From an uncultured virus (IMG/VR IMGVR_UViG_3300028854_000016) (taxonomy: Duplodnaviria > Heunggongvirae > Uroviricota > Caudoviricetes): a stretch of DNA of 64,000 nucleotides. The first letter of the stretch is position 1, and each line of letters begins with the position of its first letter. Below the pieces are notes generated by a model, which saw only the letters and a program-made list of their open reading frames with translations, searched no databases and was not told the origin of the DNA. Below are positions 1,531 through 61,112 of this stretch, piece after piece. The position numbers and the translations under genes are program-made. The stretch is from IMG/VR virus record IMGVR_UViG_3300028854_000016, positions 1-64,000 of that record; one strand, written 5' to 3'.

Positions 1531-1575
1531 AGAAATAAAAAATCCACTCTAAATTAGAGTGGATTTTTTATTTCT
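1531..1575. terminator. bidirectional intrinsic terminator
   Basis: agaaataaaaaatccactct-aaatt-agagtggattttttatttct inverted repeat between convergent genes. Confidence 0.8.
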
Positions 1576-1877
1576 TGGTTGTGTAATAAGGCAGAAAACA
1601 TTTTAGCTTTAATTTTTCCTTCAAACATTTTGGTAAGTAGATGATGGCAAATAAAATGTTCTTTGGCAGTAAGAAAAACTTGATTTTCTTTTATTTTGGG
1701 ATGTACTAATCCGAAAGATTTTGGAATTATGTGATGAGACTCGATATAGCCAAGTGTGGATTTGACAATTTTTTTATTTGTTCCACGAAAAATTGCTTTA
1801 GAACAAATATTGATATAAATTTTAGTATATTTGTTAAATATAGCAATATTTTGAATTTGAGATATATAAATAGACAT
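1554..1877 (-). CDS. HNH homing endonuclease, probably C-terminally truncated
   Basis: ESHHIIPKSFG...NQVFLTAKEHFICHHLL HNH motif; ORF ends inside the terminator. Confidence 0.7.
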   Translation of the reverse strand: MSIYISQIQNIAIFNKYTKIYINICSKAIFRGTNKKIVKSTLGYIESHHIIPKSFGLVHPKIKENQVFLTAKEHFICHHLLTKMFEGKIKAKMFSALLHNQEIKNPL

Positions 1878-1934
1878 ATGCTGGTGTCCTATGAGACATT
1901 AGAATTGGTGGGTGATCTTAACACCGCGACCAAT
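1878..1934 (-). ncRNA. structured endonuclease-gene leader motif, copy 1
   Basis: attggt-cgc-ggtg-loop-cacc-c-accaat-tctaa-tgtc-loop-gaca-ccagc-at-ATG; same architecture at 28753-28814 and 40183-40241. Confidence 0.65.
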
Positions 1935-2026
1935 AATATTTATCTTGACAAAATATAATTTATGCTCTAATATTAAAGATATACAAGTTTAGAAAAGATA
2001 AATAAACACAGGAGAAACAAAACAAT

Positions 2027-2635
2027 ATGAGCAATAATATTTGCAAGCACGTTGGATTACATAATGCCAAGAAAATTTTAATTTTATGGAATAAAGTTCC
2101 TGGAGAATCTCATATGGCATTGGTTCTATTCGCTGATAAGATTCCCGCAGCATATTCTGAATTGGTTCATAAAACATTGGTAAGTGAAGCTGGGCAAAAA
2201 GCAAAAAATTTCGCAGATGCATTGAATGAAGTAAAGTTGCCTGACGGAAGAAATTTACTTAATGCTTTGCACACTGAATCGCATATTAAAAAAGTTCAAA
2301 CGAATCAGACATTTGTTACACCTGACTCAATTAACAAGATTAAGTTAAATGAACTCAATGATATGATGGATAAAATTGAAGAAGGCGGGGATGCTAAGAA
2401 AAAATTAGAAGATTTAGATTTATATAAAGGAATGAATAAAAGAAAACGACGAAATGGGCTGTCAACCACTCCCAGTGATTTAGATATTTCTGATAAAAAG
2501 ATGGTGGTAGCCTTGCAAGAGCAAGTCAAGCAATTGACTGGTGCTGTAGAAGCATTACTTGTTGAAGTTAGACAATTGAAAGGGGACAGATCAGAACCTG
2601 CTTCAGTTGCTCCCAAAACACGAAAAATAATTTAA
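2027..2635 (+). CDS. hypothetical phage protein
   Basis: 202-aa ORF with AGGAG SD and upstream ATAAATA; terminator follows. Confidence 0.75.
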   Translation: MSNNICKHVGLHNAKKILILWNKVPGESHMALVLFADKIPAAYSELVHKTLVSEAGQKAKNFADALNEVKLPDGRNLLNALHTESHIKKVQTNQTFVTPDSINKIKLNELNDMMDKIEEGGDAKKKLEDLDLYKGMNKRKRRNGLSTTPSDLDISDKKMVVALQEQVKQLTGAVEALLVEVRQLKGDRSEPASVAPKTRKII

Positions 2636-11700: not shown

Positions 11701-11871
11701 ATAACTGCTGGTGGTATTGATTCAGACTTACAAAACTTTGGTGGTGAAGAAGGTATGGGAGAAGAAATGCCAGAAGGCGGAGAAGAAGCTGCTCCTGGGG
11801 AAGGCACACCAGAAGGAGCTAATACTCCAGTTGCTGCTCAAGGCCCTGCACCAACTAGCTCAGGCGCTTAA
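8710..11871 (+). CDS. portal vertex protein (T4 gp20-like) containing an intein
   Basis: LLEDSIIIYRVQRAPERRVFKIDVGDMP and DDLKYFNNK..LRIPSSYL gp20 motifs. Confidence 0.93.
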   Translation: MAWKKYFKKATPNQDGVFSPLSRRGGRSTGEDAVGVNSYPNLIQESYLGCPNRIERYQNFESMDQDSEVNSALDILAEFSTQSNEQDNMCFNVKFKEPPTETESKIIKKQLQSWYYLNEFNKRAFRLFRNVIKYGDQIFLRDPETFKLFYVEMDNVIKVIVNESKGKKPEQYIIRNMAPNFENLTATQVTANNLYNVVPSGPGFNAAGSGYNAPNSPYSSSSRFTKGLNEHAINAEHILHLSLTEGLDPNWPFGNSILELIFKVYKQKELLEDSIIIYRVQRAPERRVFKIDVGDMPQHLAMAFIEKVKNEMHQRRIPGRSDGGNFQDSTYFSMAPNADFFFPITSSGRGSSVEQLAGGCLKMDTKVPLLDGRTLSLIELTEEFQEGKENWVYSCNPETGEVVPGIISWAGVTHESAQVMKITLDNEEEIICTLDHKFPILEKGFVEAKDLSIGERFIPFNIQNREILKTRKKQYTQVYQNNTKKWEFVHRMIAHCLALENFVFDEQYKNSKKDVIHHKNFNRFDNSPSNLVRMAFKDHTDFHSYYGFSKDSQVLGTIAAKEKMEFIKINYPEKYKKLMKEKGKRHKEFWASLNIEERQQYIDIKKIGLQNYFKNLTDKERNIRIEEMMPTINSLIKASKDKLEKMNTDEDYYNWVCEHQQKGWDKFKKTPEAKIRGKKIGNDNRLRFSRPGYTENVFKNQRVKVDKQTLDYVQSLVLQKNKIKIVEAIKLFNDTDEYLNYYLNLNKETCCANWNNDRLTGSQLRNALKIRGYKNWKQFRDEVRLYNHAIVSIEYLSEPIQVGTLTIDKDEKYHNYHTFALASGIFTKNSNLNEIDDLKYFNNKMMRGLRIPSSYLPTGQDDSPSTINDGRVGTALIQEYRFNQYCERLQKLVCDPLDLEFKAYLKWSGINIDSSMFQLTFNPPQNFAHYRQAELDSSKISTFTQLEGYQYFSKRFLMERYLGMTSEEINENQKLWREENVSPDQIESEPSDLRNLGITAGGIDSDLQNFGGEEGMGEEMPEGGEEAAPGEGTPEGANTPVAAQGPAPTSSGA
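9787..11196 (+). mobile_element. 470-aa intein with internal HNH endonuclease
   Basis: starts CLKMDTKV, block B ICTLDHKF, ends HTFALASGIFTKN followed by Ser; internal VIHHKNFNRFDNSPSNL. Confidence 0.9.
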
Positions 11872-12704: not shown

Positions 12705-13051
12705 TGAAGATATTTGAAATTGCTGCTAGATCAATTAATGATCCACTTGGCTATAAAACGCATCAATTAACTCTCCCTGATGATATTCATGGTCAAACTT
12801 TTCATTTAGAGTTTGTGGGATCCAGTAAAAAATTTCCAAATACAGTTAGAGCCAAATATGATAATGAAGAATTATATAATAAAGAATATATTGTTACAGT
12901 TTATGATCGTTTGACTAATGAAGTTGAAGTAATTCATTTGGGTCAAAATCATTTGAAAGTTACTTATGATTTCGCCAATCCTGAAGAAGCACAAGAGTAT
13001 TTGGATGAATTTCATATTAAATTACTAATTGGAAAGGGGTATATAAAATGA
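12704..13051 (+). CDS. hypothetical protein
   Basis: 115 aa, translationally coupled at both ends, MKIFEI start. Confidence 0.65.
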   Translation: MKIFEIAARSINDPLGYKTHQLTLPDDIHGQTFHLEFVGSSKKFPNTVRAKYDNEELYNKEYIVTVYDRLTNEVEVIHLGQNHLKVTYDFANPEEAQEYLDEFHIKLLIGKGYIK

Positions 13052-13782
13052 ACCTTATTGAAGAGATTTTTAAATATCGAGCAGTTATTATTAACGAAGA
13101 AAAAGAATTTTATCTTGATGCGTTGAAAAGATTATTGAAAACTTCTGCTAAGAAAGGAGATACTGCTGCATATTTTTATTATGACCAATTATCAAATAAA
13201 CCAAATGTAGTTGCATTCACAGAATTTGATAACTTTATTCATAGTTGGGCAGGAGGACTATGGAGAAGAAGATATAAGAATGAAATCCAAAATTTAGCAG
13301 ATAAATTAAATAGTGAAGATGCGAGCAGAGGTCTATCAAAAAAATGGATAGTTGAAAGTTTTGATAGTGTGAGAAATGAAAAAGATGAGCATTTTTATGC
13401 TCAAGAAAACGACGATAAGAACTTAAAAAATGCTATTAACGATAATAACGATGAATTAAAAGAAATTGTCGATAAACATGCAAAGAATGGAATTAAAATT
13501 TCACTTTCAGTGCGACCAGATAGAATAATAGTTAACGTGATTAATGTAAAACCAGAAAATCGTAATAAAGGATTTGGCACAGCTCTTATGAAAGATTTAT
13601 GCTCTTATGCTGACAAAGTTCAAAAAACGATGTTTTTAACACCCAGTAAAGATTTTGGAGCAACGTCTGTCAATAGATTAAAAAAATTTTATAGTGAATT
13701 TGGATTTAAAAGTAATAAAGGAAAAACTATAGATTTTTCTGCAAAAGAGACAATGATTAGAAAACCAACGAAACATAAGTAA
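13048..13782 (+). CDS. modular protein with C-terminal GNAT acetyltransferase domain
   Basis: INVKPENRNKGFGTALM and RLKKFYSEFGF GNAT motifs. Confidence 0.75.
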   Translation: MNLIEEIFKYRAVIINEEKEFYLDALKRLLKTSAKKGDTAAYFYYDQLSNKPNVVAFTEFDNFIHSWAGGLWRRRYKNEIQNLADKLNSEDASRGLSKKWIVESFDSVRNEKDEHFYAQENDDKNLKNAINDNNDELKEIVDKHAKNGIKISLSVRPDRIIVNVINVKPENRNKGFGTALMKDLCSYADKVQKTMFLTPSKDFGATSVNRLKKFYSEFGFKSNKGKTIDFSAKETMIRKPTKHK

Positions 13783-14865: not shown

Positions 14866-15516
14866 ATGGAAAGAATTCCACTATTTGAATATCAACATCA
14901 AAGTGCAGTAGCTACAGAATTACTAGAAGCAGTAGATCCTTTGACTGGTGCTAAGAAAAAAGATTTATATATGAAAGGAATTTTCATTCAAGGTGACATA
15001 AGAAACCAAAATCAAAGAGTTTATCCAGTTTATGAGATTAAGAAAGCTGTTGATTCTATTACGGCATTAATAAATGAAAATATTTCAATTTTCGGCGAAG
15101 GGGACCATCCGGCTGATTTAAAGATTAATCTTGATCGAGTGTCTCATGTTATTACAGGTATGTGGATGGAGGGAGCTAATGGTTTTGGAAAATTAAAAGT
15201 ATTACCTACTCCAATGGGAAATATTATTAAAGCTATTCTTGAAAGTGGATGTAAATTGGGAGTTAGTTCTCGTGGTTCAGGAAATGTAAATGAATCTACA
15301 GGACAAGTTTCGGATTTTGAGATTATAACAGTGGATTGTGTATGTCAGCCAAGTGCTCCAAATGCATACCCTGTTCCAATTTACGAATCTCTAAAAAATT
15401 ACAAAAGAAATGGAGATAATTTATTGGAAATGGCAGCAGAGGTAAATTCAGATACTAAAGTACAAAAATATTTACAAAATGAAATAATTAGATTCATTAA
15501 GGACTTAAAATTATAA
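14866..15516 (+). CDS. prohead protease (T4 gp21-like)
   Basis: GIFIQGDIRNQNQRVYP, GEGDHP, LGVSSRGSG, DCVCQPSAPNAY; start taken at the ATG after the SD. Confidence 0.92.
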   Translation: MERIPLFEYQHQSAVATELLEAVDPLTGAKKKDLYMKGIFIQGDIRNQNQRVYPVYEIKKAVDSITALINENISIFGEGDHPADLKINLDRVSHVITGMWMEGANGFGKLKVLPTPMGNIIKAILESGCKLGVSSRGSGNVNESTGQVSDFEIITVDCVCQPSAPNAYPVPIYESLKNYKRNGDNLLEMAAEVNSDTKVQKYLQNEIIRFIKDLKL

Positions 15517-16367
15517 TGAGAGAAACAAAAGCATTTGTTTATAAATGGACTGAACTTTCTACAGGAAAATGGTATATAGGTTCACGAACTAAAAAAGGAT
15601 GTAATCAAGATGATGGTTATATTTGTTCTAGTAAAATTGTAAAACCATTAATATTAGAAAATAAGTTTAATTGGTTTAGAGAAATATTATTTGAAGGAGA
15701 ACCAAAAGAAGTAAGAGAATATGAAACAAAATTATTAGTATCATTAAATGCAGCATATGATATTAATAGTTATAATCAGCATAATAGTGATGGCAAATGG
15801 CACACAATAGGAAAAGAACCATGGAATAAAGGAAAACATGGAGTTCAATCTCCAGTTTGGAACAAAGGATTACCAGCAGAAATGCAACCATTTTATGGAA
15901 AAGTTTTTTCAGTAGAACATAGAAAGAATTTAAGTGAATCAAGTATAGAATACTGGAAAGAACATGAAGGAAGAGAACCATGGAATAAAGGATTAATTTT
16001 GGGTTCACAATCTGTAGAAGTAATTAAAAAGAGAACATCATGGCAAAAAGGTTGTAAACGATCAGAATTAGTAGGAAGAAAAATTAGTGAAACTAAAAAT
16101 ATGAAGAGAAAGGAACGAGAACTTTCTGGTATTAAATTATTTTCCTGGGAAGAAAAATATTCTCAAGAATATATTGAAAAAAGAAAATCAAAACTTGCAG
16201 AAAAATTTAAAGTTAATAATCCTAATTCTAAAAATAAAGGAAAATCATGGGACGAAATAATGGGACCAGAACGAGCAGAAGAGAGAAGAAATAAATTGAA
16301 AAATCCTAAAAGACCAAGAAAGAAAAGAAATGATATAGGACTGACAAGAAATAAAAATATTACATAA
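15516..16367 (+). CDS. GIY-YIG (Seg-like) homing endonuclease with NUMOD-type PWNKG repeats
   Basis: AFVYKW...WYIGSR...GYICSS; repeated PWNKG. Confidence 0.8.
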   Translation: MRETKAFVYKWTELSTGKWYIGSRTKKGCNQDDGYICSSKIVKPLILENKFNWFREILFEGEPKEVREYETKLLVSLNAAYDINSYNQHNSDGKWHTIGKEPWNKGKHGVQSPVWNKGLPAEMQPFYGKVFSVEHRKNLSESSIEYWKEHEGREPWNKGLILGSQSVEVIKKRTSWQKGCKRSELVGRKISETKNMKRKERELSGIKLFSWEEKYSQEYIEKRKSKLAEKFKVNNPNSKNKGKSWDEIMGPERAEERRNKLKNPKRPRKKRNDIGLTRNKNIT

Positions 16368-24765: not shown

Positions 24766-26108
24766 TAGATTATTAATCTCCAGTTTTCAGCAGTATAGGG
24801 ACCGTTCCATCCATTCACCCATGCATTTCCATTCCATTGAATTTGAGAACTGGTATTATTGTCGTATACAAACTGAATATTTCCAATATTGTTATTGGCA
24901 GAAAAGGTAGTGATCCATGAATTTCCATTATAACTTATAATATCATTGACTTTTGCAGATGCGTTACTATTTACAGTATTATATGGCCAATTTGTCCCAA
25001 TATCACTAGTTAGTAAATAACTTTGGCCAATGTTAGCATTGGGCAATCCAATATTTGGTGCTTCACTTTCAGGATTTATAATTGCAGTAATTGCTGGCAA
25101 AGTGTTTATTGGCAAAGTTGCTATATTGGCGTTGAAAAGAACAATTGTAGAATCAGAAGGATTAACAGTTATGGTTCCAATAATTTCATTTGTGTCTCCA
25201 GCATAAGTTAACCCAATTTCTGATACCCCTTGTCTAATATTTCCATAAACTCCAAGAATTCCATTCCAATCCAACGGCTGTCCGTAGACTCCAGCCACAT
25301 TGGATGAATTGACTCCTTGATTAAGAATTCTTATTTGATTATTATTTACAAACAGTCCATAATTATTGTATGTTACTACTTGTCTAGTTCCATATACAAT
25401 ATCATTAATTCCTGCCAATTCGCCAATATTGGAAATAACTTTGAATATAACTCCCATTTTACTAACATGAGCAGGGAGAGTTAACCAAATAGGAGATTCA
25501 AATTGTAACGTACTTATATCATAAGAAGTGTCATTTCCTTGACCAACTGGAATAGTTCTATTTGACCAAGTGGTATCGTTTAATTCCAAATAACTTAAAC
25601 TTTCCCAATCTTCATAATTGTCAGTTTTTTGAATTTCTATTGATGGGTTAAATAATGGCAATATTTGTTCTAAAATTTGTAATTTTTGTTGTGTATTGCT
25701 AGTAACAATGTCGAGACGCACTTCTAATTTATATGGAACAGGCATGAATTTTTTAACTGTGTAAGCATTTCCTTGAGCAGGAAGATAAGTTCCGCAAGCA
25801 GGAGAAAATACTCTAGTTCTCACTGTAGATGAATCTACATATGTTGGGGTTTGAGTTCTTGGTCTGTCAAATTTTAGATTATTAATGTATATGGAAATCA
25901 TCGGGATACTAGGTAAAATATTCTCGCTGTTTAATCTTTGAATTGTCGCTGCTTGTATAGAGCCATCTCCCCATATAACAGGAACAGATGAATATAATTG
26001 ATTTCCAGATGCATCCAATCCATATTGCACTTGGAATTCGCTGAATACTCGCATAATCTGCAAAATCCATTTTCTTATTTGGGCTGAATATTGAAAAGTT
26101 TGTGCCAT
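24765..26108 (-). CDS. tail terminator / sheath stabiliser (T4 gp15-like)
   Basis: QIRKWILQIMRVFS, PVPYKL, QKLQILEQILPLFNPS. Confidence 0.8.
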   Translation of the reverse strand: MAQTFQYSAQIRKWILQIMRVFSEFQVQYGLDASGNQLYSSVPVIWGDGSIQAATIQRLNSENILPSIPMISIYINNLKFDRPRTQTPTYVDSSTVRTRVFSPACGTYLPAQGNAYTVKKFMPVPYKLEVRLDIVTSNTQQKLQILEQILPLFNPSIEIQKTDNYEDWESLSYLELNDTTWSNRTIPVGQGNDTSYDISTLQFESPIWLTLPAHVSKMGVIFKVISNIGELAGINDIVYGTRQVVTYNNYGLFVNNNQIRILNQGVNSSNVAGVYGQPLDWNGILGVYGNIRQGVSEIGLTYAGDTNEIIGTITVNPSDSTIVLFNANIATLPINTLPAITAIINPESEAPNIGLPNANIGQSYLLTSDIGTNWPYNTVNSNASAKVNDIISYNGNSWITTFSANNNIGNIQFVYDNNTSSQIQWNGNAWVNGWNGPYTAENWRLII

Positions 26109-26120
26109 TATTCCTCAAAT

Positions 26121-27593
26121 TTATATAGATATATCATTTGTCATGGTAGTTGAAGCTAAAAATTGATTAAGTATTGGTTGATAAACAAAAGATTGGCTGC
26201 TAAATGTATTGGGATTTGCGGTAGCTGCATTGGAAGAAATTTCCCCTGCTCCAATAAAATTTGTCGGCCAATTAAATGAATGTTGACCTATACTATCTTG
26301 AATAATTATAAATGTAAATTCTCTTGGGCATGGATTAATGATTATTGCGTTTGCATCTCCAGTTAGTGTTATGACTTGTATCGATCCAAGAGTTAAGTCA
26401 AAAATTGGATTGGGATAGTAGGGTACAATATTTTCCATTGAAATGTCTCCGTCTTCTGGATAATTTTTCCCAATATTGAAAAGACTGTCCAAAGATTGTA
26501 AGATTGGTTCTGATATATTAGAGTTATTAACAAAAGTATTTGAATTATTTATAAATGTATCTTTTTGAGTTTTTCCTTTTCCTGGAGTTAATTGAGTCCT
26601 AACATCTTTATTTACAAATTGCCACATACTTCCATTCCATCTAAATAGTCTCGCTGGAAAATAATCTTGGCGAAGAATATATTGTCCAACAGTTGGCGAC
26701 GGAGGAAATTCAGTAGCTGGGTAAACTGAATAACCATCAATTGCTTCTCCATTTCCCACCAAATAACCAGTAAATTTTTGTTCAGGACTTGACCCTAATG
26801 GCGCTGGACCATTTTTGGGATTTCCGCCAATATATAATGGTGCCCATAATGGATTGGTATCATAACCTGACTCAGGAACTTCGTGCTCTGCTTGTTTTAT
26901 AATGGCAACATCCATAGTTTCATATGTATTTATTGAACTACTAATATTACCATAAGTAGTAGTATTTCCATTTATTAACACTGGACTTCCATTCACTCCA
27001 ATAACTGTTTGGTTTAAAATATCTGCATATTCTTGAGAATCTACCATTGGAATACATTTAACTCTCCAAAGATGAGGCCACCAATCCCAGCCGTACCCCA
27101 ATGCACTTTTGGTAGCATCTTGAATTACATAATATCTTTTTAATGCTACTGGTACAGTTTCGTCGAGGCTATAAAATTCTTTAAGATTGGGAAGTTCCAA
27201 AACATCCCCAGACATTAACTTTCTTCCAATAGTATTAACCATTTCATTGAGATGAAAAGTAATAAATAATGTTCCAGAAGAAATCATCAATCCCCATTGG
27301 CTCAAATCTAAATCCAATTCAGAGATAGAATAATGGCATCTCAAACGAAATATATCTTGTCTATATTTTCTATCTCTATTTTCAAGAAACAGCACATCTT
27401 GAATATTCTGAGCACTCAAATTTGGATAGTTAGGTTGAGTTGCATCGTTTGTAACATTGGGATTTTCTGCACCAAGGTATAAATGAATATAAGAATCCAC
27501 TCCACCAACAGTGAATTGTTCATTAATTTGTCTATCTAGCCACTTTGAATCAGTGCCATATTTTTCATTTTTCCAACCACTGATTCTTGACAT
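26121..27593 (-). CDS. neck / head closure protein (T4 gp14-like) with C-terminal extension
   Basis: IQDVLFLENRDRKY, DLSQWGL, LFITFHLNEM..GRKLMSGDVLELP; adjacent to the gp15-like gene. Confidence 0.7.
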   Translation of the reverse strand: MSRISGWKNEKYGTDSKWLDRQINEQFTVGGVDSYIHLYLGAENPNVTNDATQPNYPNLSAQNIQDVLFLENRDRKYRQDIFRLRCHYSISELDLDLSQWGLMISSGTLFITFHLNEMVNTIGRKLMSGDVLELPNLKEFYSLDETVPVALKRYYVIQDATKSALGYGWDWWPHLWRVKCIPMVDSQEYADILNQTVIGVNGSPVLINGNTTTYGNISSSINTYETMDVAIIKQAEHEVPESGYDTNPLWAPLYIGGNPKNGPAPLGSSPEQKFTGYLVGNGEAIDGYSVYPATEFPPSPTVGQYILRQDYFPARLFRWNGSMWQFVNKDVRTQLTPGKGKTQKDTFINNSNTFVNNSNISEPILQSLDSLFNIGKNYPEDGDISMENIVPYYPNPIFDLTLGSIQVITLTGDANAIIINPCPREFTFIIIQDSIGQHSFNWPTNFIGAGEISSNAATANPNTFSSQSFVYQPILNQFLASTTMTNDISI

Positions 27594-27594
27594 A

Positions 27595-28752
27595 TTATAT
27601 TACCTCTATCGTATTTATGGATTTATTTGAAATATATTGTAGTATATCATTTTTGATTTCTTCTTTTTTAGAATTCCAGTCCAATTCCCATATGATCATT
27701 AAATCAATTTCTTTTTCTTTGCACAATTTTGATTTTCGCGCATCTCTTTCCCATATTTTTTGAGCACTTCCCTTGCATTTATTAATATCGTGTTCATTAT
27801 ATTTTCTAGGGTCCATGTGCCAATAAGTTCCTTGAAATTCAATAGCGAAATTTATATTGGGACAGTAAAAATCAAGTTCAAATTTTTTTAAGGGTTTCCA
27901 AGTATTTGATACAAATTGTATATTATTTTCATTTAAAAAATTGGAAAGCTCAAGCTCATAACTTGAAGTCCCAGTATCTGTTATAATATTTAAATTATAT
28001 CGTTTATGATAATTGTAAATAGTTACTGGAGTACATCCTAATATTTTTGATAATTTAATAACTCCATATTTTATTAGCATTTTAGTAAAAACATCTTTAT
28101 TTTCAAGTATTTTAATAGTTTCTTGAGAGAAATGTTTTTGAGCATAAAAAGAAACTCCATTATTTTCTATACAAGTATCAATTTTTTGTTGTTTAACTTT
28201 TGGATTTTTAGATGGATTATCATAACCAGAATTTTTCATACAGGTATTTTTGATAATTTTTTGAACTTTTTCTTCTCTCATGGGATGGCCACTAACATAG
28301 TTTTTTATAAATGTTTCTTTTATTCGAGTTTTGATAATAGAAGATTTTGATGGATTATTGACTCCCCAATTTTTAATAAACTTTTGTTTATTTTCTTCTT
28401 TAATTTTTTCTGATTTTCCAGGATTATCTGTTCCATATTTTTCTAAACAGGTTTCTTTAGTTCTATATTGAATACATTTACAGCCACGTTTACAGCTAAA
28501 TTTATGTGTCGATGGCCTGTATTTTTGTTTATTTCCATATGAACAAATTAATTCAAAATTAGGATTTAAAATTAAAAAAATTTTTGATCCCAAAGAATCA
28601 TTAAAATTAGAATATAAATTATTAATTTCGTCATTTATCCATTTTAATAAATCTTTATGATCATTGTTTCTAATTAAATTAATAAAATATGGAGATTCCT
28701 TTTTTAATTTTAAAATTTCTCCAACAGCATTTTCACGAGTATAAATATTCAT
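27595..28752 (-). CDS. free-standing homing endonuclease (KYG repeats plus Vsr-like domain)
   Basis: ELDFYCPNINFAIEFQGTYWHMDP...IWELDW; start placed at MNIY after the GGAG SD. Confidence 0.78.
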   Translation of the reverse strand: MNIYTRENAVGEILKLKKESPYFINLIRNNDHKDLLKWINDEINNLYSNFNDSLGSKIFLILNPNFELICSYGNKQKYRPSTHKFSCKRGCKCIQYRTKETCLEKYGTDNPGKSEKIKEENKQKFIKNWGVNNPSKSSIIKTRIKETFIKNYVSGHPMREEKVQKIIKNTCMKNSGYDNPSKNPKVKQQKIDTCIENNGVSFYAQKHFSQETIKILENKDVFTKMLIKYGVIKLSKILGCTPVTIYNYHKRYNLNIITDTGTSSYELELSNFLNENNIQFVSNTWKPLKKFELDFYCPNINFAIEFQGTYWHMDPRKYNEHDINKCKGSAQKIWERDARKSKLCKEKEIDLMIIWELDWNSKKEEIKNDILQYISNKSINTIEVI

Positions 28753-28814
28753 AAGCTGATACTTCTCCATACACAGTATTAGAGTAGTCGAGGACCCCTA
28801 TTCCTGTGGTCTGC
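28753..28814 (-). ncRNA. structured endonuclease-gene leader motif, copy 2
   Basis: gcagac-cac-agga-loop-tcct-c-gactac-tctaa-tact-(ggag)-agta-tcagc-tt-ATG. Confidence 0.6.
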
Positions 28815-28847
28815 ATTAGTATTTATGGATTTTAAATAAATACTTAT

Positions 28848-29476
28848 ATGATTATTAATGAGATAATAAAACATGGATTAATAAATCCTGGTGATATTTC
28901 GAGAATACACGAATCTAAAAGATTTGTGGGAGTTTCTAAATATATTCAAAATCATTGCTCTGATATTCTAAAAATATATAGAGAAACAGACAATTATTTA
29001 TTTCGTGGATGGGCAGGTGATAAGCCATCAATTTTTATGGGCAATCCAAGAATAGATAGACAGCCAAAAGATGTAGCTTATAACATTCAAGTAGGAGTCG
29101 ATGAAAAATTAAAAGATGCAGGATTTACTGCATTAAGAAGCAATAGTATTTTTTGTACTTGTGAAAGAAATCACGCTGGAAAGTATGGAGCTGTATATGT
29201 GATTTTTCCAATTAATGGATTTAATTATACATGGGCTCTTGGATTATATGATTTATATATGAAGAAATATATTGTCAAAGGGACTCTTGACTTTACTCCA
29301 AAACAGTTTGTTAAACAGTGGAATTTTAAAAAACGGGAATAGAAACATTATTAAAAAATCATATTGGAATTGAAATTTATATCAATGGGCCATATATTGC
29401 AGTTGAAAGAGATTTTCTCTATGGAAAGCCAGATACCACGAAACCATTATTTGATATTTTAGGATTGAAAATATGA
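28848..29476 (+). pseudogene. ADP-ribosyltransferase-like paralogue with one frameshift near 29330
   Basis: LFRG..RQPKD..ALRSNSIFCT..IFPINGF; another frame continues EIYINGPYIAV and ends in an ATGA overlap with the next gene. Confidence 0.65.
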
Positions 29477-30150
29477 TAATATCAGAAGTTATAAATCATG
29501 AAAAATTAACACCTGGTCAAGAGCAATGGATGTTAAGCACGCAGCGAAAAGAACTCGCAGAGTTTATGAAGAAGAATTGCTCAAATATTATTGAAACATA
29601 TAATTATGAAAATAGATATTTGTATCACGGTATGCGGAGCACACATTCACATATTTTTATGGCTCAAACCAGAGAAGATAGGCTCCCAAGGGATACTCCA
29701 GAATATGTGCAAATTAAACTAGATAAAATACTGGCTTCTCAAGGATTTACTGCATTAAGAAGCAATAGTATTTTTTGTACTTCTGATTTTAAGTTTGTGC
29801 ATGATTACGGTTCTCCTTTTATGATTTTTCCAATCAATGGTTTCACTTATACTTGGAATACTACTGCCAAAGACTTGTTTCAAAGATATGAATTACGATA
29901 TGATTCTTCATTGTTGACTACAGAGATGAATAAACCAGATTTAGATCCCAAAAAATTTATCAGCGATTTCAATTTTAAAAATAATGAAGGATTATTAACA
30001 GCGTTAAGAAAAGAAAATGAAGTTTGTATTCATGGATCATATATAGGTATAGAGTGTGAATCAAATATAATTCAGATAATGTTACCTATATTGGGATTAA
30101 ACCATCCTAATTTGGAAGACTATTATGGTCATTATGAAAGAAAGAGATAA
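29473..30150 (+). CDS. ADP-ribosyltransferase-like paralogue
   Basis: LYHG..RLPRDT..ALRSNSIFCT..IFPINGF..ENEVCIHG. Confidence 0.55.
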   Translation: MIISEVINHEKLTPGQEQWMLSTQRKELAEFMKKNCSNIIETYNYENRYLYHGMRSTHSHIFMAQTREDRLPRDTPEYVQIKLDKILASQGFTALRSNSIFCTSDFKFVHDYGSPFMIFPINGFTYTWNTTAKDLFQRYELRYDSSLLTTEMNKPDLDPKKFISDFNFKNNEGLLTALRKENEVCIHGSYIGIECESNIIQIMLPILGLNHPNLEDYYGHYERKR

Positions 30151-30171
30151 AAACTTTTTAAGGAATGAGTA

Positions 30172-30882
30172 ATGAAACTTTTTGAAATCATAAATTACGA
30201 AGAATTAAAATCAGGTCAGATTCAGCGCATACTTGGTCAAAAGAGTAAATCTATTTCCAACTTTATTGAGAATCATTGTTCTCAAATTTTAGATATATAT
30301 TGGAAAGAACAAAAATATTTATATCGTGGTGTAAACTTAATTAGCACGTCACAATTTATGCTGGGAAATTCAAGAGATAACAGATCACCGAAAGATACAC
30401 CAAAAGAAGTCCAATTATTAATTGATAAAAGATTGCAAGAAGCAGGATTTGAGGCCCGAAGATCAAACAGTATTTTTTGCACTTCAAATTTATATACAGC
30501 AGAGGCATATGCAATACCATTGAGAAATGTTTTTATAATTTTTCCAATTAATGGATTTTCATTTACATATAATTCAATGGCTAGGGATTTGTATACATAT
30601 TATGGTTTAAAAAGACAATTAGATAGAACTGATTCAGTGTCTTCTTTTATGAGAGAACTAAACGATGATTCTATTTCTTCAGATATTTTTTGCAGTAAAT
30701 ATGGATTTGAAAAAACTAACTTGGGATATGGTATTAGTAACTTGAGAGAAATATATATTAATGGAAAATATGTTGCTATTAAAATTAAAACAAAATTATT
30801 AGATCATGTTTTGGAAGATTTAAATCTATCAGAAAAAACAAAAGTTAACATAGATCAAGATGGTGTAGTAGCAGGAGAATAA
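30172..30882 (+). CDS. ADP-ribosyltransferase-like paralogue
   Basis: LYRG..RSPKDT..RRSNSIFCT..IFPINGF..REIYING. Confidence 0.55.
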   Translation: MKLFEIINYEELKSGQIQRILGQKSKSISNFIENHCSQILDIYWKEQKYLYRGVNLISTSQFMLGNSRDNRSPKDTPKEVQLLIDKRLQEAGFEARRSNSIFCTSNLYTAEAYAIPLRNVFIIFPINGFSFTYNSMARDLYTYYGLKRQLDRTDSVSSFMRELNDDSISSDIFCSKYGFEKTNLGYGISNLREIYINGKYVAIKIKTKLLDHVLEDLNLSEKTKVNIDQDGVVAGE

Positions 30883-30883
30883 A

Positions 30884-31654
30884 ATGTCTGAAGAAATAGA
30901 AGTAGTAGATATAAAAAAATTACGAGATAAAGTATTTGATTATGTATTGAATAGATTAGGTCAAGGTATGATTGACGTTGAACTTGATCCTGTCCATTTA
31001 CAAAATGCTTTAGATCGAGCCATCGAAGTTTTTCGTACTCGAAGCAGTGCTGCTGTTGAAGAATCTTTTGCATTTTTAACAACTCAAAGAAATGTGCAAA
31101 TTTATACTCTCCCAGAAGAAACAGAAACAGTGTTAAAAATATGGCGCAGGTCTTTGGGAGATTTGGGAAATGGCGGAAGTCAATTTGATCCATTTTCTCA
31201 AGGGTATCTGAATGTATACATTCTAAATGCTGGCAGAAGCGGGGGATTATTGTCGTATGAATTATTTTCAGATTTCCAATTTCAAGTTGATCGTATGTTT
31301 GGTGGACAGATAGATTTCAATTTTAACTCAGTAACTAAAAAGTTAACATTAGTTAGAAGACCAGAAGGAAGTGGCGAGCATCTATTACTTCAGATTTATG
31401 TAAAAAAACCAGAATGCCAGTTACTTTCTGATTATAAGTCATTAACTTTTCTTAAAGATTATGTTCTTGCTCTTTCTAAGATAACTCTCGGTGAAGCAAG
31501 AGAGAAATTTGGAACAATTCCAGGTCCATCTGGAGGGACAAATTTAAATGGCGCTGCATTAAAGACAGAAGGTCAAGCTATGATCGATAAACTTCACGAA
31601 AATATTCAAAATTATCAATATGGCGAAATTCCACTCGGACTTCTTATAGGTTAA
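30884..31654 (+). CDS. neck protein (T4 gp13-like)
   Basis: RLGQGMIDVELD, LGEAREKF..IPGPSGGTNLNGAALKTEG. Confidence 0.85.
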   Translation: MSEEIEVVDIKKLRDKVFDYVLNRLGQGMIDVELDPVHLQNALDRAIEVFRTRSSAAVEESFAFLTTQRNVQIYTLPEETETVLKIWRRSLGDLGNGGSQFDPFSQGYLNVYILNAGRSGGLLSYELFSDFQFQVDRMFGGQIDFNFNSVTKKLTLVRRPEGSGEHLLLQIYVKKPECQLLSDYKSLTFLKDYVLALSKITLGEAREKFGTIPGPSGGTNLNGAALKTEGQAMIDKLHENIQNYQYGEIPLGLLIG

Positions 31655-31704: not shown

Positions 31705-32982
31705 ATGAAATTAAAAGAAATATTAAAACAACTGGAAGAATTAAAATTAGAGTCCCCATATTATATCACTTTGATTAATCAAATGCCAAAATATTTGAAA
31801 TTAAAAAATAGCATTAATAATGAATTCAAAAAGTTGTATCCAAATATAAAAGAAAAATCTCTTGTAGCTAAAATTTTCGCCATTAGAAATCCAGAGATAA
31901 GTATAATTTGCCCATACACGCAAAAGAAAAAGAAATATAATTATTCCCAAAAAAGATATGTTTGTCCAAATACTTGCCAATGTACCAAAGATTATACTAT
32001 AGAAAGATGTATGACAAAACACGGAGTTACTTCAACTAATAAATTGGCTGTAACAAAAGAAAATAAAAAGAATGCGTATATTAGATTATGGGGTGTTGAT
32101 AATCCATCTAAAGTTCCAGAAATTCAAGAACAGAAAAAGATAACAAGTATTAAAAATTGGGGTTGTGAATTTCCATTACAATCAGAAGAAATAAAAGAGA
32201 AAGGAAGAAAAACTAATTTATCAATTCGTGGTGTGGAATATGGTATGCAGGACTCAGTAATTAGAGAGAAAGCCAGAAAAACTAATTTAAAAATTAGAGG
32301 AGTGGAATATCCTTCCCAAGATAAATCAGTAAAAGATAAGATTAAACAAACAAATTTAAAAAATTGGAATTACGAAAATACTTCTAAATCTCCTCCAATA
32401 AAACAAAAGAAAATAGAAACATCATTGCGTAATTTTAATAGAGAATATGGAACACAACGTCATTTAACTTTGGAAGCTATTGATATTATCAATGATAAAG
32501 AAAAATTTGCGAAAGTTTTATTAAAATATGGGTCAAGTGGGGCAGTTGGTATATTGGGAATTAATCAATCATCCATTAGTAGAATACATTCAAAATATGG
32601 TTTAGCTATATTAAAAAATCGATATAGTTCTTATGAAAATGAAATTGAAACTTGGTTAAATGATAATAATATTGATTACCTAAGAAATGATAGAATTCAA
32701 ATTGGACCAAAAGAATTAGATTTTTATTTTCCTAGACATAATGTAGCAGTAGAATTTCAAGGAGATTATTGGCATATGAATCCTTCTTTATATGAAGCTG
32801 ATGATTTAAATGCTCAAACAAATAAACAAGCAAAAGATATATGGAAATATGATCAAGATAAATTTAATAAATGTAAATCTAATGGTATTAAATTAATAAT
32901 TATATGGGAATCTCAATGGGAAGATAATAAAGAGCAAATAAAAGAAAATATTCTTGCTATTCTCAAAGAAAAGGAGTTATAA
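31705..32982 (+). CDS. free-standing homing endonuclease (GV repeats plus Vsr-like domain)
   Basis: WGVDNPSK / RGVEYPSQ repeats; ELDFYFPRHNVAVEFQGDYWHMNP...IWESQW. Confidence 0.78.
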   Translation: MKLKEILKQLEELKLESPYYITLINQMPKYLKLKNSINNEFKKLYPNIKEKSLVAKIFAIRNPEISIICPYTQKKKKYNYSQKRYVCPNTCQCTKDYTIERCMTKHGVTSTNKLAVTKENKKNAYIRLWGVDNPSKVPEIQEQKKITSIKNWGCEFPLQSEEIKEKGRKTNLSIRGVEYGMQDSVIREKARKTNLKIRGVEYPSQDKSVKDKIKQTNLKNWNYENTSKSPPIKQKKIETSLRNFNREYGTQRHLTLEAIDIINDKEKFAKVLLKYGSSGAVGILGINQSSISRIHSKYGLAILKNRYSSYENEIETWLNDNNIDYLRNDRIQIGPKELDFYFPRHNVAVEFQGDYWHMNPSLYEADDLNAQTNKQAKDIWKYDQDKFNKCKSNGIKLIIIWESQWEDNKEQIKENILAILKEKEL

Positions 32983-38479: not shown

Positions 38480-39509
38480 ATGGTGTATACAAAAGAATTA
38501 GCAATAAAAGAAATTAACAGACTTAAAAAAATTTTTACTAAACCAAGTGTTGAAGCAAAAAAAGACAAAGATTTAGTTAATTGGATCAATAAAGAAATAG
38601 AGAAAAATTATCCCAATTTAAATGAATCATTATCTGCAAAAATGTGGTTGGTTCTGCATGAAGGATATAAATTAATATGTCCTTATGGAAATAAAAGAAA
38701 ATTTTGTAGACGAAGTAGAAATGAGCCACAATTTAATTGTGTTACTTCATGCCAATGTACTATTGAAAATAGGAACAAAACAATTATAGAAAAATATGGC
38801 GTATTGGGTTTATTATCAATTCCAGAAAATCAAAATAAATTAGTAAAAACTTGTTTGGAGAAATATGGCTCAAAAAGCGCAAATGGAAACAAGGATATAA
38901 TGAAGAAACAAATTAATACTAGAAAAAATAAATGTATGATTAAATATGGAGTCTCTCACGAAAAGCAAATACATTTTTCAGAATATGCAAAAGAAATATT
39001 GAATAATAAAGAAAAATTTAGTGAAATGATTTTAAAATTGGGATCACGAGAAATGGCAAAGCAACTTAATGTTAGTCAAAGTACTATTGTAGTATATCAT
39101 AAAAATTAGAATTGAATGTAATTTCCAGAACCAGATCATGTTATGAAATAGAATTAGAAAATTGGCTAATTGACCAAAAATAAAGTTTATATCTAATGAT
39201 ATGAAAATAATAAAACCAAAAGAATTGGATTTTTATTTACAAGATTATAATATTGGTATAGAAATTCAAGGAAATTATTGGCATGGGAATCCAAAGAAAT
39301 ATAAATCAACTAATATGATTCGATCTAATCGTGGTTTGATTTCTGTGGCTGAAATATGGAAGAAAGATGAATACAAAAAGAAATTATGTCAAAATAAAGG
39401 AATTAAATTGTTAGTGTTTTGGGAAGATGAATGGTTAGAAAATAATGATAAAATTAAAAAGACAATTTTAGAAAATTTGCCTTGTGGGATAAATACTTAC
39501 AAGAAGTAA
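38480..39509 (+). pseudogene. KYGV/Vsr-like homing endonuclease with two frameshifts
   Basis: N-part stops at 39109; linking frame LELNVISRTRSCYEIELENWL; C-part ELDFYLQDYNIGIEIQGNYWHG. Confidence 0.75.
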
Positions 39510-40137: not shown

Positions 40138-40145
40138 TGCTATAA

Positions 40146-40177
40146 AAAAGAGCCAGATATTAATATCTGGCTCTTTT
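40146..40177 (+). terminator. intrinsic terminator
   Basis: aaaagagccagata-ttaa-tatctggctctttt. Confidence 0.75.
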
Positions 40178-40182
40178 AACTT

Positions 40183-40241
40183 GCCATTCACGACTCTGAC
40201 AAGTCCAATGGCTCTATCATAACTTGGAGAAATGACAGCCT
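40183..40241 (+). ncRNA. structured endonuclease-gene leader motif, copy 3
   Basis: gccatt-cac-gact-loop-agtc-c-aatggc-tcta-tcat-(ggag)-atga-cagc-ct-ATG. Confidence 0.65.
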
Positions 40242-41718
40242 ATGTCTATTTATACATACGAATCAGCACTCGCAGAAATTATCAGATTGAAATCAAAAAC
40301 TCCGTATTATGTTAACTTAATTAGAAAAATTGAATATAAATCATTGCTTGAGTGGATTAATATCCAAATTCCTGATGAAAAATACACAATAGGAGCAAAA
40401 ATTTTTCTTTTGCTTAACTCAGATTTAGAATTAATATGCCCATATGGAAAAGAAAAGAAATACAGAGCAGATTTATCTAAATTTGTTTGTATTAAATCGT
40501 GTCAATGTACAAAAGATAATAGATCCAAAACAAATGTTGATGTTTATGGATCAAGCTGTCCTTTGAAAAGCATAGAAGTGCAAGAAAAGAGAAAAAATAC
40601 TTGTATAGAATTGTATGGAGTTGATCATCCATCTAAATCAGAAGAAATTAAGAATAAAAAGAAACAAACCTGCATTAAAAATTTTGGTTATGATAATAAT
40701 TTAAAATCCCCAAAATGCAGAGAGAAGCGAAAGAAAACAATGTTAGAAAAATATGGATACGAAAATCCAGGAAATTGCCCAGAAATAATAGAAAAACAGC
40801 AAAACACTTGTATGGAAAATAATGGAGTTTCCTTCCCCTTTCAAGCAAAAGAAATTCAAGATAGAGTTAAGAAAACAATGTTAGAAAAATATGGATACGA
40901 AAATCCAGGAAATTGCCCAGAAATAATAGAAAAACAGCAAACCACTTGTATGGAAAGATATGGAGTTAATACTCCTTTTGACTCAAAAGAAATTCAAGAA
41001 AAAAGCAAAAATACACGAGAAAAAAATTATAAATTAAATTCTGTAATCAAAAAATCTAATGAAAAATTAAAAAATATAAGTATTTATGGAAAAGAAGATC
41101 CTACTAGTAAAGAAAAAGCAATAAAATATAAGAAAAACTAATATACAAAAATATGGAACTGAATGGTCAGTTCAAAAACATATTACTTCAAAATCTTTAG
41201 AAATTCTAAATTCTAAAAAATTATTAAATGAGATGTTAGAAAAAAATTCATTTGATGAAATATCAAAATTATTAGGAGTTACTTATTCTACAATTAATAG
41301 AAGATACAGAAAACACAATCCAGAAAAACCCTTGATTAAAAGGTCAAGTTCATTTCAAAATGAAATTGCTTGTTGGTTAATACAAGAAAATATAAAATTT
41401 ACTGAAAAAAATCGCACAATTTTAAAAAATAAAATTAAAATTAAAAATTTAAAAACAAAAGAATTAGATTTTTATCTTCCAGATTATAAAATTGGAATTG
41501 AATTCAATGGAACATATTGGCATATGGACCCAAGAAAATATAAATCAATTGATTATAATGAAATTGCTAAAAAGACAGCTCAAGAAATTTGGGATAAAGA
41601 CAAATATAAAGAAGATTTATGCAAATCATTGGATATAAAATTAATAGTTATTTGGGAGCAAGACTGGAAATCCAACAAAGAACAAATCAAAACAAATATA
41701 CTATCCCAACTTAGCTAA
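40242..41718 (+). pseudogene. KYG/Vsr-like homing endonuclease with a frameshift near 41100-41140
   Basis: first frame stops at 41141; second frame IRKTNIQKYGTEWSVQKH runs into ELDFYLPDYKIGIEFNGTYWHMDP. Confidence 0.75.
40731..40956 (+). repeat. near-perfect ~88-bp direct repeat, period 138 bp
   Basis: KKTMLEKYGYENPGNCPEIIEKQQ(N/T)TCME encoded at 40731 and 40869. Confidence 0.9.
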
Positions 41719-55761: not shown

Positions 55762-56694
55762 ATGGCAAAGCCTTTTGATGTAAGTCGTTTTAGGAAAAGC
55801 ATAACCAAATCAATAGAAGGCATGAGCATTGGTTTTCGTGATCCAAAGATTTGGATTTCAACTGGAAACTATTGTCTTAATTATTTAATTAGTGGAAGAT
55901 TTGATACAGGCATCCCGTTGGGAAAAATTACAGTATTTGCAGGCGCTCCAGGAGCAGGAAAATCATTAATTGTATCTGGAAATATTATAAAAGATGCACA
56001 AGAACAGGGAATTTATGTAATTTTAATTGATAGTGAAAATGCTCTTGATGAAGATTGGTTGAAAGCATTGGGAGTTGATACAAGCGAAGATAAGTTACTG
56101 AAATTAAATATGGCAATGATTAATGATGTTGCTAAAATGATCAGTGATTTTGTTAAGCAATATAAATTGATTCCAGTTGATGAACGACAAAAAGTATTAT
56201 TTGTGGTTGATTCTTTGGGTATGCTTTTAACTCCTACTATGGTAAATCAAATGGAAGCAGGATCTATGAAAGGAGATATGGGAATTAAAGCCAAACAGCT
56301 AAAAGCAATGATTATTAATTGCGTTAATATGTTTGGTGATCTCGATATAGGAATGGTGGCAACAAATCATATCTATTCTTCTCAAGATCAATATTCAGAT
56401 GATATAATTTCAGGCGGGTGTTTAACAAATGATCATAAAATACAGTTAGTTAACGATGAGTTAAAATTAATTGGAGATATTAAAGTTGGTGATATTGTTA
56501 AAACTTTGGATGGCGATAAAGAAGTTACAGAAACTTATAATTATCTTGATAAAGAAGTGTTTGAATTACAACTAGAGGATGGGCAAATTATTAAAGCTAC
56601 TTCGGAACATAAATTTTTAGTAGAATCTGATGATGGTTATATTTGGAAAAAAGTAGCAGATTTAAATGAAGAAGATGAAATCTTATCCCTTTAA
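55762..56694 (+). CDS. uvsX: UvsX/RecA recombinase N-extein plus split intein N-fragment
   Basis: GAPGAGKS Walker A, IDSENA, VVDSLG; ISGG then CLTNDHKI..IKATSEHKF and stop. Confidence 0.9.
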   Translation: MAKPFDVSRFRKSITKSIEGMSIGFRDPKIWISTGNYCLNYLISGRFDTGIPLGKITVFAGAPGAGKSLIVSGNIIKDAQEQGIYVILIDSENALDEDWLKALGVDTSEDKLLKLNMAMINDVAKMISDFVKQYKLIPVDERQKVLFVVDSLGMLLTPTMVNQMEAGSMKGDMGIKAKQLKAMIINCVNMFGDLDIGMVATNHIYSSQDQYSDDIISGGCLTNDHKIQLVNDELKLIGDIKVGDIVKTLDGDKEVTETYNYLDKEVFELQLEDGQIIKATSEHKFLVESDDGYIWKKVADLNEEDEILSL

Positions 56695-60442: not shown

Positions 60443-60471
60443 TTGACAAATAAATTTATTTAGGATATTCT
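60443..60471 (+). promoter_or_regulatory. sigma70-type promoter, probably leaderless
   Basis: TTGACA-17 nt-TATTCT-6 nt-ATG. Confidence 0.72.
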
Positions 60472-60477
60472 TTATAT

Positions 60478-61047: not shown

Positions 61048-61077
61048 AATATTCAAAACAAAGCATTTATTTTCTTA

Positions 61078-61106: not shown

Positions 61107-61112
61107 CTTTAT

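Follow-up and report, generated by a model that had tools for sequence, protein, structure and literature searches.

The chief selfish genes that large phages carry are those for homing endonucleases. To our knowledge, their restraint in phages is known for a few T-even cases only, all of them hairpins on the sense strand. The subject here is a short cassette found at the head of nuclease-type genes, or of their decayed remnants, in an uncultured Caudoviricetes virus (IMG/VR record IMGVR_UViG_3300028854_000016) and its relatives. Positions 1 to 64,000 of that record were analysed and are called the window. The cassette comprises two facing boxes of the T4 late-promoter type around a core of ~58 nt with two hairpins, ~85-95 bp in total. 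It is a single portable unit that occurs as many as eight times in one genome and precedes genes of at least five nuclease families, and it appears to act through the opposite strand. If this is true, phages would have an equivalent of the antisense systems of IS10 and IS200, and the cassette would clearly exemplify how coding and promoter constraints can overlap. It would also provide a compact late-promoter part that works in both directions, and annotation would gain a new RNA family, where the nuclease genes now seem to share an N-terminal 'MxIY' motif.

Closest described systems

In the insertion sequences IS10 (RNA-OUT/RNA-IN, pOUT facing pIN) and IS200 (art200), an outward promoter overlaps the 5' end of the transposase gene (PMC5006887, PMC4513863). 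The antisense product, a stable RNA with a stem-loop, is complementary to the ribosome-binding site and start and damps translation (PMC5006887, PMC4513863). At the level of motifs the cassette is similar: its outward box, apparently a promoter, lies within the 5' end of a selfish nuclease gene. The IS10-type traits, namely an embedded outward box, a conserved antisense fold and predicted complementarity to the Shine-Dalgarno sequence and AUG, were all found in its sequence. It differs in residing in a phage, in having gp55-type late boxes instead of sigma-70 promoters and in preceding homing endonucleases instead of transposases. Also unlike in IS10 and IS200, the overlap spans the whole leader of ~75 nt with two covarying hairpins, the box lies inside codons 2-4, the RNA would often continue into a gene of the host phage, and the cassette is known from sequence alone.

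In cyanophage S-PM2, the antisense RNA CfrI was seen experimentally opposite a free-standing homing-endonuclease gene (PMC2984593). Both cases concern a T4-like phage with antisense RNA opposite a homing endonuclease, that of the cassette being predicted only. Unlike the cassette RNA, CfrI is ~225 nt long and links the endonuclease gene to psbA. A search of the S-PM2 genome with the cassette model gave no matches at E ≤1, and no shared sequence or fold was found.

The T4 late promoter is a bare 8-bp box, TATAAATA or NATAAATA, without a -35 element (PMC2988020, PMC2984593). It lies about one helical turn upstream of the start and is used on either strand (PMC2988020). In T-even phages and Aeh1, a late TATAAATA and an RNA structure precede the endonuclease genes I-TevI, I-TevII, I-TevIII, segB and mobE, and endonuclease promoters can create antisense transcripts (PMC2988022). 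The T-even and Aeh1 hairpin forms on the sense RNA and buries the Shine-Dalgarno sequence, whereas the cassette has this sequence in a loop, a fold that suits the opposite strand and two facing late boxes. Dassa et al. (2009) described hairpins in the 5' untranslated region together with TATAAATA at free-standing endonucleases of ocean 'fractured genes' (PMC2677866). As in the cassette, conserved hairpins and a late box precede endonuclease genes (GIY-YIG and Vsr/EDxHD-like) in phage DNA from the environment. Their two MEME motifs (Figure S4) are unlike the cassette core and were read as sense-strand translational hairpins; the word 'antisense' is absent from the main text (PMC2677866).

The PeSLs of T4-type phages are promoter/stem-loop modules mediating shuffling (PMC4122927). 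They share with the cassette the form of a short conserved promoter and stem-loop module that is common to unrelated open reading frames (ORFs) and thought to mediate shuffling. A PeSL combines an early promoter with a terminator, whereas the cassette has two late boxes and two covarying hairpins and reaches into the ORF. Membership of the PeSLs was rejected, the boxes being of late type and the second hairpin not being flagged as a terminator.

Comparison with Rfam 15 returned no match in the window at the gathering score, only a tRNA in 20 related loci and no match at E ≤10 for one leader. Megablast of positions 27500-30000 against phage records gave no match. Blastn of one leader gave only a 38-nt match at chance level (E 0.03), and no cultured carrier was found. 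The cassette was not found in the accessible texts on phage endonuclease antisense RNA or on T4 late-promoter and ribosome-binding-site hairpins; the supplements of PMC10690425 could list it.

Three cassettes in the window

TAAATA was present within 70 nt upstream of 23 of the 52 plus-strand gene starts, as against 4.3 expected (p 5e-12), among them those of the major head, sheath and tail tube genes. Because of this excess at gene starts, TAAATA is read as a promoter element, and it behaves as one in the sequence of this genome. It occurred 93 times on the plus strand and 46 times on the minus strand, a bias that fits the mostly rightward genes and possibly an avoidance of antisense late boxes. 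Homologues of gp55, gp33 and gp45 were not found among the 51 window ORFs scanned, the contig running 8.6 kb beyond the window.

The motif ATGNNTATTTAT was present three times in the window, at 1866-1877 (minus strand), 28741-28752 (minus) and 40242-40253 (plus), each time as the start of an ORF. These starts read ATG-NNT-ATT-TAT-A, encoding M-S-I-Y in copies 1 and 3 and M-N-I-Y in copy 2. An earlier note on this DNA had described three genes beginning M(S/N)IY with an antisense TAAATA; the following base is A in all three, giving a perfect TATAAATA on the opposite strand. The sequence CAGC-N-T-ATG-NN-TATTTATA is common to the three copies, each time preceded by a homologous two-hairpin element. 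Their features are as follows, R1 being the covariance model of the core described below.

1554..1877, minus strand: copy 1 gene, HNH-type homing-endonuclease-like, 107 aa, M-S-I-Y (phrog_655, E 1.4e-20)
1865..1872, plus strand: copy 1 TATAAATA box, codons 2-5, opposite the gene
1880..1937, plus strand (antisense): copy 1 two-hairpin core (R1, 56.3 bits)
1937..1942, minus strand: copy 1 sense TAAATA late-promoter core
2027..2635, plus strand: copy 1 head-to-head neighbour, 202 aa, phrog_15894, no function assigned
27595..28752, minus strand: copy 2 gene, Hef/EDxHD-like homing endonuclease, 385 aa, M-N-I-Y (phrog_3339, E 4.6e-37)
28740..28747, plus strand: copy 2 TATAAATA box, codons 2-5, opposite the gene
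28755..28817, plus strand: copy 2 two-hairpin core (R1, 48.1 bits)
28756-28782, plus strand: copy 2 antisense first hairpin, with CUCC (Shine-Dalgarno complement) in the loop
~28784-28814, plus strand: copy 2 antisense second hairpin
28820..28825, minus strand: copy 2 sense TAAATA box
28848..29342, plus strand: copy 2 head-to-head neighbour, 164 aa, phrog_11975 paralogue family, ATG 30 nt past the core
40242..41141, plus strand: copy 3 gene, N-terminal part of a split Hef/EDxHD-like endonuclease, 299 aa, DUF7487 repeats, M-S-I-Y
40247..40254, minus strand: copy 3 TATAAATA box opposite the gene
40180..40239, minus strand: copy 3 two-hairpin core (R1, 48.9 bits)
40144..40173, minus strand: copy 3 palindromic hairpin followed by six U, predicted RNA 3' end

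The sense TAAATA boxes of copies 1 and 2 lie where the earlier note had placed them. The facing boxes, estimated there at about 65-75 nt apart, were found 64 nt apart in copy 1 and 72 nt apart in copy 2. Copy 3 has no sense TAAATA box and carries the palindromic hairpin upstream instead. It points the same way as the gene upstream of it; copies 1 and 2 lie in the opposite orientation to the genes beside them. The neighbour of copy 1 also has putative promoters of its own past the cassette, a sigma-70-like one at 1945-1973 and a TAAATA at 1999-2004.

The small HNH-type protein of copy 1 belongs to a different family from the Hef/EDxHD-like proteins of copies 2 and 3. It had no Pfam match at 0.001, and the label 'homing endonuclease' comes from PHROG. 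The copy 2 protein consists of DUF7487 repeats and a C-terminal nuclease domain, and its tblastn relatives are annotated as F-LimVIII, hef and 'homing endonuclease EDxHD'. Close relatives of it were not found in viral contigs, only the query itself matched its N-terminal 100 residues among 19 candidates, and the Protein Data Bank gave no match at E ≤1. The nuclease domain of copy 3 forms a separate ORF (41233-41718), 91 nt from the N-terminal one. An orphan nuclease-domain ORF (phrog_3339/559) is located at 39201-39509. The cassette is absent from three further endonuclease-like genes of the window, which all run in the direction of the adjoining genes. Two of them, at 7544-8707 and 31705-32982, share the family and PHROG of copy 2, and the third, at 15516-16367, is from another endonuclease family.

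In the window alone, the three occurrences of ATGNNTATTTAT compare with 1.21 expected, and 15 of 100 shuffles reached three, which is within chance. The sense TAAATA boxes likewise stay within chance expectation when the window is taken by itself. The significance of the motif is therefore drawn from its context and from relatives found without using it, not from window counts.

The cassette family in related viruses

An exact scan of viral contigs for the 19-mer shared by the window copies (CAGC-N-T-ATG-NN-TATTTATA) yielded 103 loci, the first 100 of which were inspected. The two-hairpin core was present directly upstream in 60 of them, and the remaining loci look like chance matches in unrelated sequence. 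A leader alignment (n=41) combined 38 distinct loci chosen by eye with the three window copies. The order of its elements is sense box, 2-10 nt, hairpin 1, CTCTA, hairpin 2, CAGC, ATG and TATTTATA. Hairpin 1 has two invariant bulged C, and the loop of hairpin 2 holds GGAG, the Shine-Dalgarno sequence.

Model R1 was built from the core alone (hairpin 1 to CAGC), so that copies found with it were not picked by the motif. It was searched on the whole records behind 25 loci and on the window contig, 26 records in all, each with at least one copy by construction. Up to eight copies were detected per record (a complete 195-kb genome), with seven in a complete 236-kb genome and three in the window contig. 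After removal of two matches cut by locus ends and three duplicates, the 63 matches gave 58 distinct copies with flanks, of which 28 match the seed 19-mer and 30 do not; the latter are referred to as unselected. A sense TAAATA box was present in 55/58 copies, 2-10 nt before hairpin 1 and mostly at 5 nt. Sequence conservation in the 41-leader alignment stopped at both boxes. The earlier suggestion that the two boxes mark the ends of a small mobile cassette thus holds for the ends of a portable cassette, which is not a free-standing mobile element.

Behind the cassette, 53 ORFs of at least 40 aa were found, and 48 of these were scanned, leaving out three near-duplicates and two stubs (42 and 54 aa). 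Pfam matches at E ≤0.01 were obtained for 35/48, several of them under Pfam's cut-off, and 33 of the 35 were of endonuclease type. The families were NUMOD3, GIY-YIG/SegE, HNH, HNH_3, DUF7487, DUF723/DUF4379 and TnsA-like; zinc-finger ORFs were also among the genes headed by the cassette.

A head-to-head ORF of at least 80 aa begins 19-175 nt past the core in 34 of the 58 copies, including copies 1 and 2. One duplicate was dropped and the other 33 were scanned. The neighbours included a DNA end protector, baseplate hub, wedge and tube cap proteins, a DnaB-like helicase, topoisomerase II, an SbcD-like nuclease and an RNA ligase. Free-standing endonucleases typically adjoin such conserved genes. 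The embedded box was present in 33/34 copies with a head-to-head neighbour. Of the copies lacking such a neighbour, 20/24 had the box, a number that rises to 21 with L149, a model-end artefact. In several loci next to a head-to-head gene the nuclease ORF has decayed (42 aa in L131/L132, 15 aa in L134/L135, no ATG in L151), with the core and the embedded box intact.

Nucleotide-level conservation of the embedded box

TATTTA was found 5-9 nt after the core in 26 of the 30 unselected copies, and in 24 of these 26 at 5-7 nt. The distance from CAGC was 5 nt in ten copies, 6 nt in nine, 7 nt in five and 8 and 9 nt in one each. TATTTA was followed by TA in ten copies, TC in seven, TT in five and TG in one, and three copies read TATTTAC. 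On the opposite strand this corresponds to ATAAATA in 23 copies and GTAAATA in three.

These letters could in principle be a by-product of coding, M-x-I-Y being the first strand ('GIY' motif) of GIY-YIG nucleases, for which AT-rich codons would spell TATTTA. Many of the ORFs are GIY-YIG-like, ATT (46%) and TAT (81%) are the commonest Ile and Tyr codons in the ORF bodies, and three GIY-YIG genes of one record (L113, L118 and L121) keep Ser-Ile-Tyr without the motif, spelled AGT-ATA-TAT. Against this, the motif is also present on HNH, EDxHD-like, TnsA-like and zinc-finger ORFs. Among the 24 unselected x-Ile-Tyr starts, the codon of x ended in T in 24/24, whatever the residue (A, D, S, T, N, P or I), and the Ile codon was ATT (NNT-ATT) in 21/24. 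Internal x-Ile-Tyr tripeptides of the same ORFs carried TATTTA in 5/31 cases, compared with 21/24 at the N-terminus (Fisher p 1e-7). Retention of TATTTA at synonymous positions, one of two points that the earlier note had named as a test of its proposal, was thus observed.

Five copies hold the same letters in another frame or without an ATG. L117 and L147 read ATG-ATA-TAT-TTA (Met-Ile-Tyr-Leu-Tyr), L160 reads ATG-TAT-CAC-TAT-TTA (Met-Tyr-His-Tyr-Leu-Tyr), L143 reads ATG-TTA-TTT-ATA (Met-Leu-Phe-Ile) and L151 has no ATG. The homologous GIY-YIG proteins of L117 and L120 arrive at the motif by different routes: in one it is formed via Ile-Tyr-Leu, and in the other Leu is CTG and an extra ATT codon restores the motif at equal distance from the hairpin. 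Judged by the N-terminal and internal codon use and by these other-frame copies, what is conserved is the nucleotide sequence of the motif, and coding does not account for it.

Hairpin fold and strand

In 60 distinct rows, 85.2% of cells paired, compared with 61.2% in shuffles. The covariation score was 0.622 against 0.181 in shuffles, none of 500 shuffles reached it, and sliding the pair partners abolished the signal. Both-sided changes were present at 10/10 pairs of hairpin 1, and RNAalifold showed compensatory changes in 14/16 predicted pairs of the 41 leaders. Both hairpins are real.

Read on the gene strand, the two hairpins contained A.C 55 times and G.U seven times (binomial p 1e-10), a count that omits one invariant A.C pair and one loop-closing non-pair, both in hairpin 2. 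The cells of hairpin 1 comprised 575 Watson-Crick pairs, 20 A.C, no G.U and one other; one of its pairs was G-C 39 times, A-U nine times, A.C 12 times and never G.U. Hairpin 2 held 35 A.C and seven G.U after the exclusions. The A.C cells were spread over many different stem backgrounds, and counting them as G.U of the opposite strand raised the share of standard pairs from 85.2% to 93.6%. The earlier note had pointed out one C-A mismatch in copy 2 that becomes G-U on the antisense strand. This is the third pair of the start-proximal hairpin, which in 3/3 window copies reads A.C on the gene strand and G.U on the opposite one. The wider count across homologues that the note had proposed likewise puts the fold on the antisense strand.

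The antisense strand folded better in 57/58 cores (-17.1 versus -12.75 kcal/mol). With dinucleotide shuffles as control, its z was -1.79 versus -1.08 for the sense strand and was the lower one in 44/58 (p 6e-6). The fold is assigned to the antisense strand because of the A.C excess over G.U and this better folding. On these counts, it is the strand complementary to the nuclease gene on which the conserved fold is under selection, and there the embedded box immediately precedes it.

The ATG follows the CAGC that closes the core by 0-2 nt and lies outside the stems. The start-proximal hairpin carries the Shine-Dalgarno sequence in its loop, and on the antisense strand the corresponding loop holds the complement. 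By analogy, this placement is the layout of loop-loop antisense control. A sense hairpin sequestering the ribosome-binding site, of the I-TevI/mobE type, was rejected, no stem burying the Shine-Dalgarno sequence or AUG. The late sense RNA would start at or just inside hairpin 1, which masks nothing. The second hairpin was also considered as an intrinsic terminator and rejected; a simple scan flagged it at none of the window copies, and no RNA end is claimed there. A leaderless small ORF on the antisense RNA was discarded as not conserved, about half of the copies having ATG at the predicted start and the rest AAG.

The plus strand of copy 1 folded into two hairpins with z from -2.1 to -2.5. 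For copy 3, the minus strand from 40241 to 40138 gave three hairpins (-39.8 kcal/mol, z -5.6), and 0/200 shuffles were as good; the simple terminator scan did not flag its hairpin at 40144..40173. The outer stem of copy 2 has one T.G wobble and one T.T mismatch on the plus strand and is the weakest of the three copies. At 28818-28842 (plus strand), the complement of the sense box can pair with TAAATAAATA just upstream of the ATG of the copy 2 neighbour. By fold prediction, the copy 2 antisense RNA would thereby gain a third hairpin composed of A and U only.

Proposed mechanism

The reading that we favour, if tentatively, is that the embedded box is an outward late promoter, and that the antisense fold made from it holds nuclease synthesis down while the same RNA also feeds the neighbouring gene. 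TATTTA(T/A) in codons 2-4 would be a T4-type late-promoter box on the opposite strand, and two late boxes would thus face each other across the two-hairpin element of ~58 nt. The outward RNA would have its 5' end at the base adjoining the nuclease AUG, 0-3 nt ahead of the first antisense hairpin. The box-to-start spacing applied here is that of T4 and was not measured in the window genome. With it, antisense starts would lie near 1878 (plus), 28753 (plus) and 40241 (minus). The start at the base before the ATG that the earlier note had proposed fits in copy 2, at 28753, and the 5-nt spacing on which it relied is the T4 geometry.

The antisense RNA would fold into both conserved hairpins and be perfectly complementary to the whole nuclease leader, including the Shine-Dalgarno sequence and AUG. 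Nuclease output would be lowered by leader pairing and by head-on transcription, as for RNA-OUT against RNA-IN in IS10. Where a head-to-head gene is present, as in copies 1 and 2, the RNA would continue as the hairpin-capped late leader of that gene. Where a terminator is present, as in copy 3, it would end as a discrete RNA of ~100 nt; such an RNA is predicted for copy 3 only, because the terminator hairpin follows there. The small antisense RNA of the earlier note keeps its strand and need not be small, since it would meet a head-to-head gene in 34/58 copies.

Several points weigh against this mechanism. Promoter use, the start site, pairing of the two RNAs and the lowered nuclease output are what we infer from the motif, its conservation, the covariation, the strand asymmetry and the geometry. 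TATAAATA shows no excess in the window (12 occurrences, 11.4 expected), and four of the 30 unselected copies lack the box, namely the three GIY-YIG genes L113, L118 and L121 and one degenerate copy without an ORF. The hairpins of copy 2 are weak (z -0.6 to -1.2). Related phage sequences are not independent, so the p-values given above are generous. Both facing promoters would be late, and the antisense RNA could damp the nuclease but not time it. In 34/58 copies the RNA would run into the neighbouring gene, so that the promoter could serve that gene alone.

Up to eight cassettes with the same segments are present per genome, and action in trans between leaders was considered for this reason. 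Multicopy inhibition is known for IS10. In a broader form of the proposal, the cassettes would be a general transferable self-limiting device that sets the nuclease dose, with RNAs acting in trans and the neighbour's promoter making loss costly; this is a doubtful extension, to which we attach a low probability.

Alternative explanations

An outward promoter and hairpin-capped leader could serve the head-to-head gene only, with no meaningful effect on the nuclease. The insertion would then not starve the neighbouring gene, and the cassette would be hard to delete. This is the alternative that fares best, although it is on balance unlikely. All but one of the 34 copies with a head-to-head ORF have the box, the gap is ≤31 nt in 14/34, where the embedded box is the nearest possible promoter, and the neighbours are core phage genes (end protector, baseplate, helicase, topoisomerase, SbcD-like). 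A hairpin at the 5' end can stabilise mRNA, and the decayed nucleases L131, L134 and L151 keep core and box beside such genes. Endonuclease ORFs of T4 embed promoters of neighbouring genes, for example segG for gene 32 (PMC2988022). However, the box is kept in 20-21 of the 24 copies that have no head-to-head gene, including copy 3 with its immediate terminator, and the neighbour of copy 1 has its own sigma-70-like and TAAATA promoters past the cassette. Several neighbours, such as the helicase and topoisomerase genes, are of classes with early or middle timing in T4, for which a late promoter should be unnecessary. Nuclease damping is ranked first because copies with no neighbouring gene to supply retain both box and fold. 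Service to the neighbouring gene is ranked second, and the two roles do not exclude each other.

The inner box could also act in a start-masking stem. TATTTATA complements the sense box ~75 nt upstream and would hide the start in read-through RNA, while late transcripts would begin past the upstream arm and be translated, following the paradigm of T4 gene e, soc, I-TevI and mobE. In the window and most relatives, each box is the exact reverse complement of the other, some copies closely follow a co-oriented gene, and T-even endonuclease genes provide well-documented cases of the paradigm (PMC2988022). This explanation is nevertheless improbable. RNAalifold predicted no box-to-box pairing in the 41 leaders, and in the eight copies with C-TAAATA (L115, L116, L119, L122, L136, L142, L143 and L157) the downstream partner never compensates. 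The upstream gene is divergent in 34/58 copies, which leaves no read-through RNA, and copy 3 keeps TATTTATA without any upstream box. The Shine-Dalgarno sequence lies in a loop, not a stem, and the fit of the hairpins to the opposite strand would be left unexplained.

We likewise give little credence to an explanation at the DNA level, in which the inverted boxes of 7-8 bp do no more than delimit a module that recombines, with no transcription starting from the inner one. Conservation does stop at both boxes, and the presence of the same cassette and first four codons on unrelated ORF families requires exchange at or inside the cassette. PeSLs provide a precedent for the shuffling of promoter and stem-loop (PMC4122927). 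Borders would need neither an exact promoter, nor a fixed spacing of 5-7 nt, nor a strand-specific G.U pattern. Such exchange does not preclude transcription and could coexist with the antisense promoter. A nuclease-free allele across copy 2 was not found in the contigs of four DNA runs, which are fragmentary, and the only contig joints near copy 2 in these runs lie among paralogous genes at 29155-30748.

The coding by-product is highly improbable and, on the codon use and other-frame copies described above, close to refuted.

Other features of the window

The window has a G+C content of ~30% and is part of a 72.6-kb viral contig, ~20% of a genome according to CheckV. It encodes T4-type portal, head, sheath, tube and baseplate genes, and its sheath protein is closest to those of jumbo myoviruses, with 33-40% identity. 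The stretch 26000-31000 was present in 23 runs, all of them DNA from peat metagenomes, with no RNA run listed for it.

The T4-type portal gene at 8710-11871 (1053 aa) probably carries an intein: Portal_T4 matched in two stretches with an Intein_splicing match between them, the score of the latter being under the Pfam cut-off. A UvsX-like recombinase is present as two ORFs, an N-terminal one at 55762-56694 and a C-terminal one at 56859-57389, 164 nt apart, and may be a fractured gene. Paralogues of phrog_11975, with no function assigned, are located at 28848-29342, 29473-30150, 30172-30882, 49758-51092 and 13048-13782. Metagenome contigs join across these paralogues at 29155-30538 and 29778-30748.

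A 66-nt tandem repeat with ~9 copies occupies 60427-61075, within the ORF 60478-61047. A unit related to it was found at 50547-50627, within the ORF 49758-51092, and both ORFs match phrog_17056/5925. A 72-nt intergenic repeat occurs three times, at 68-139, 60410-60481 and 61045-61116. It holds TTGACA and a TAATAT-like hexamer, and from this sequence the repeats look like early-promoter cassettes reminiscent of PeSLs.

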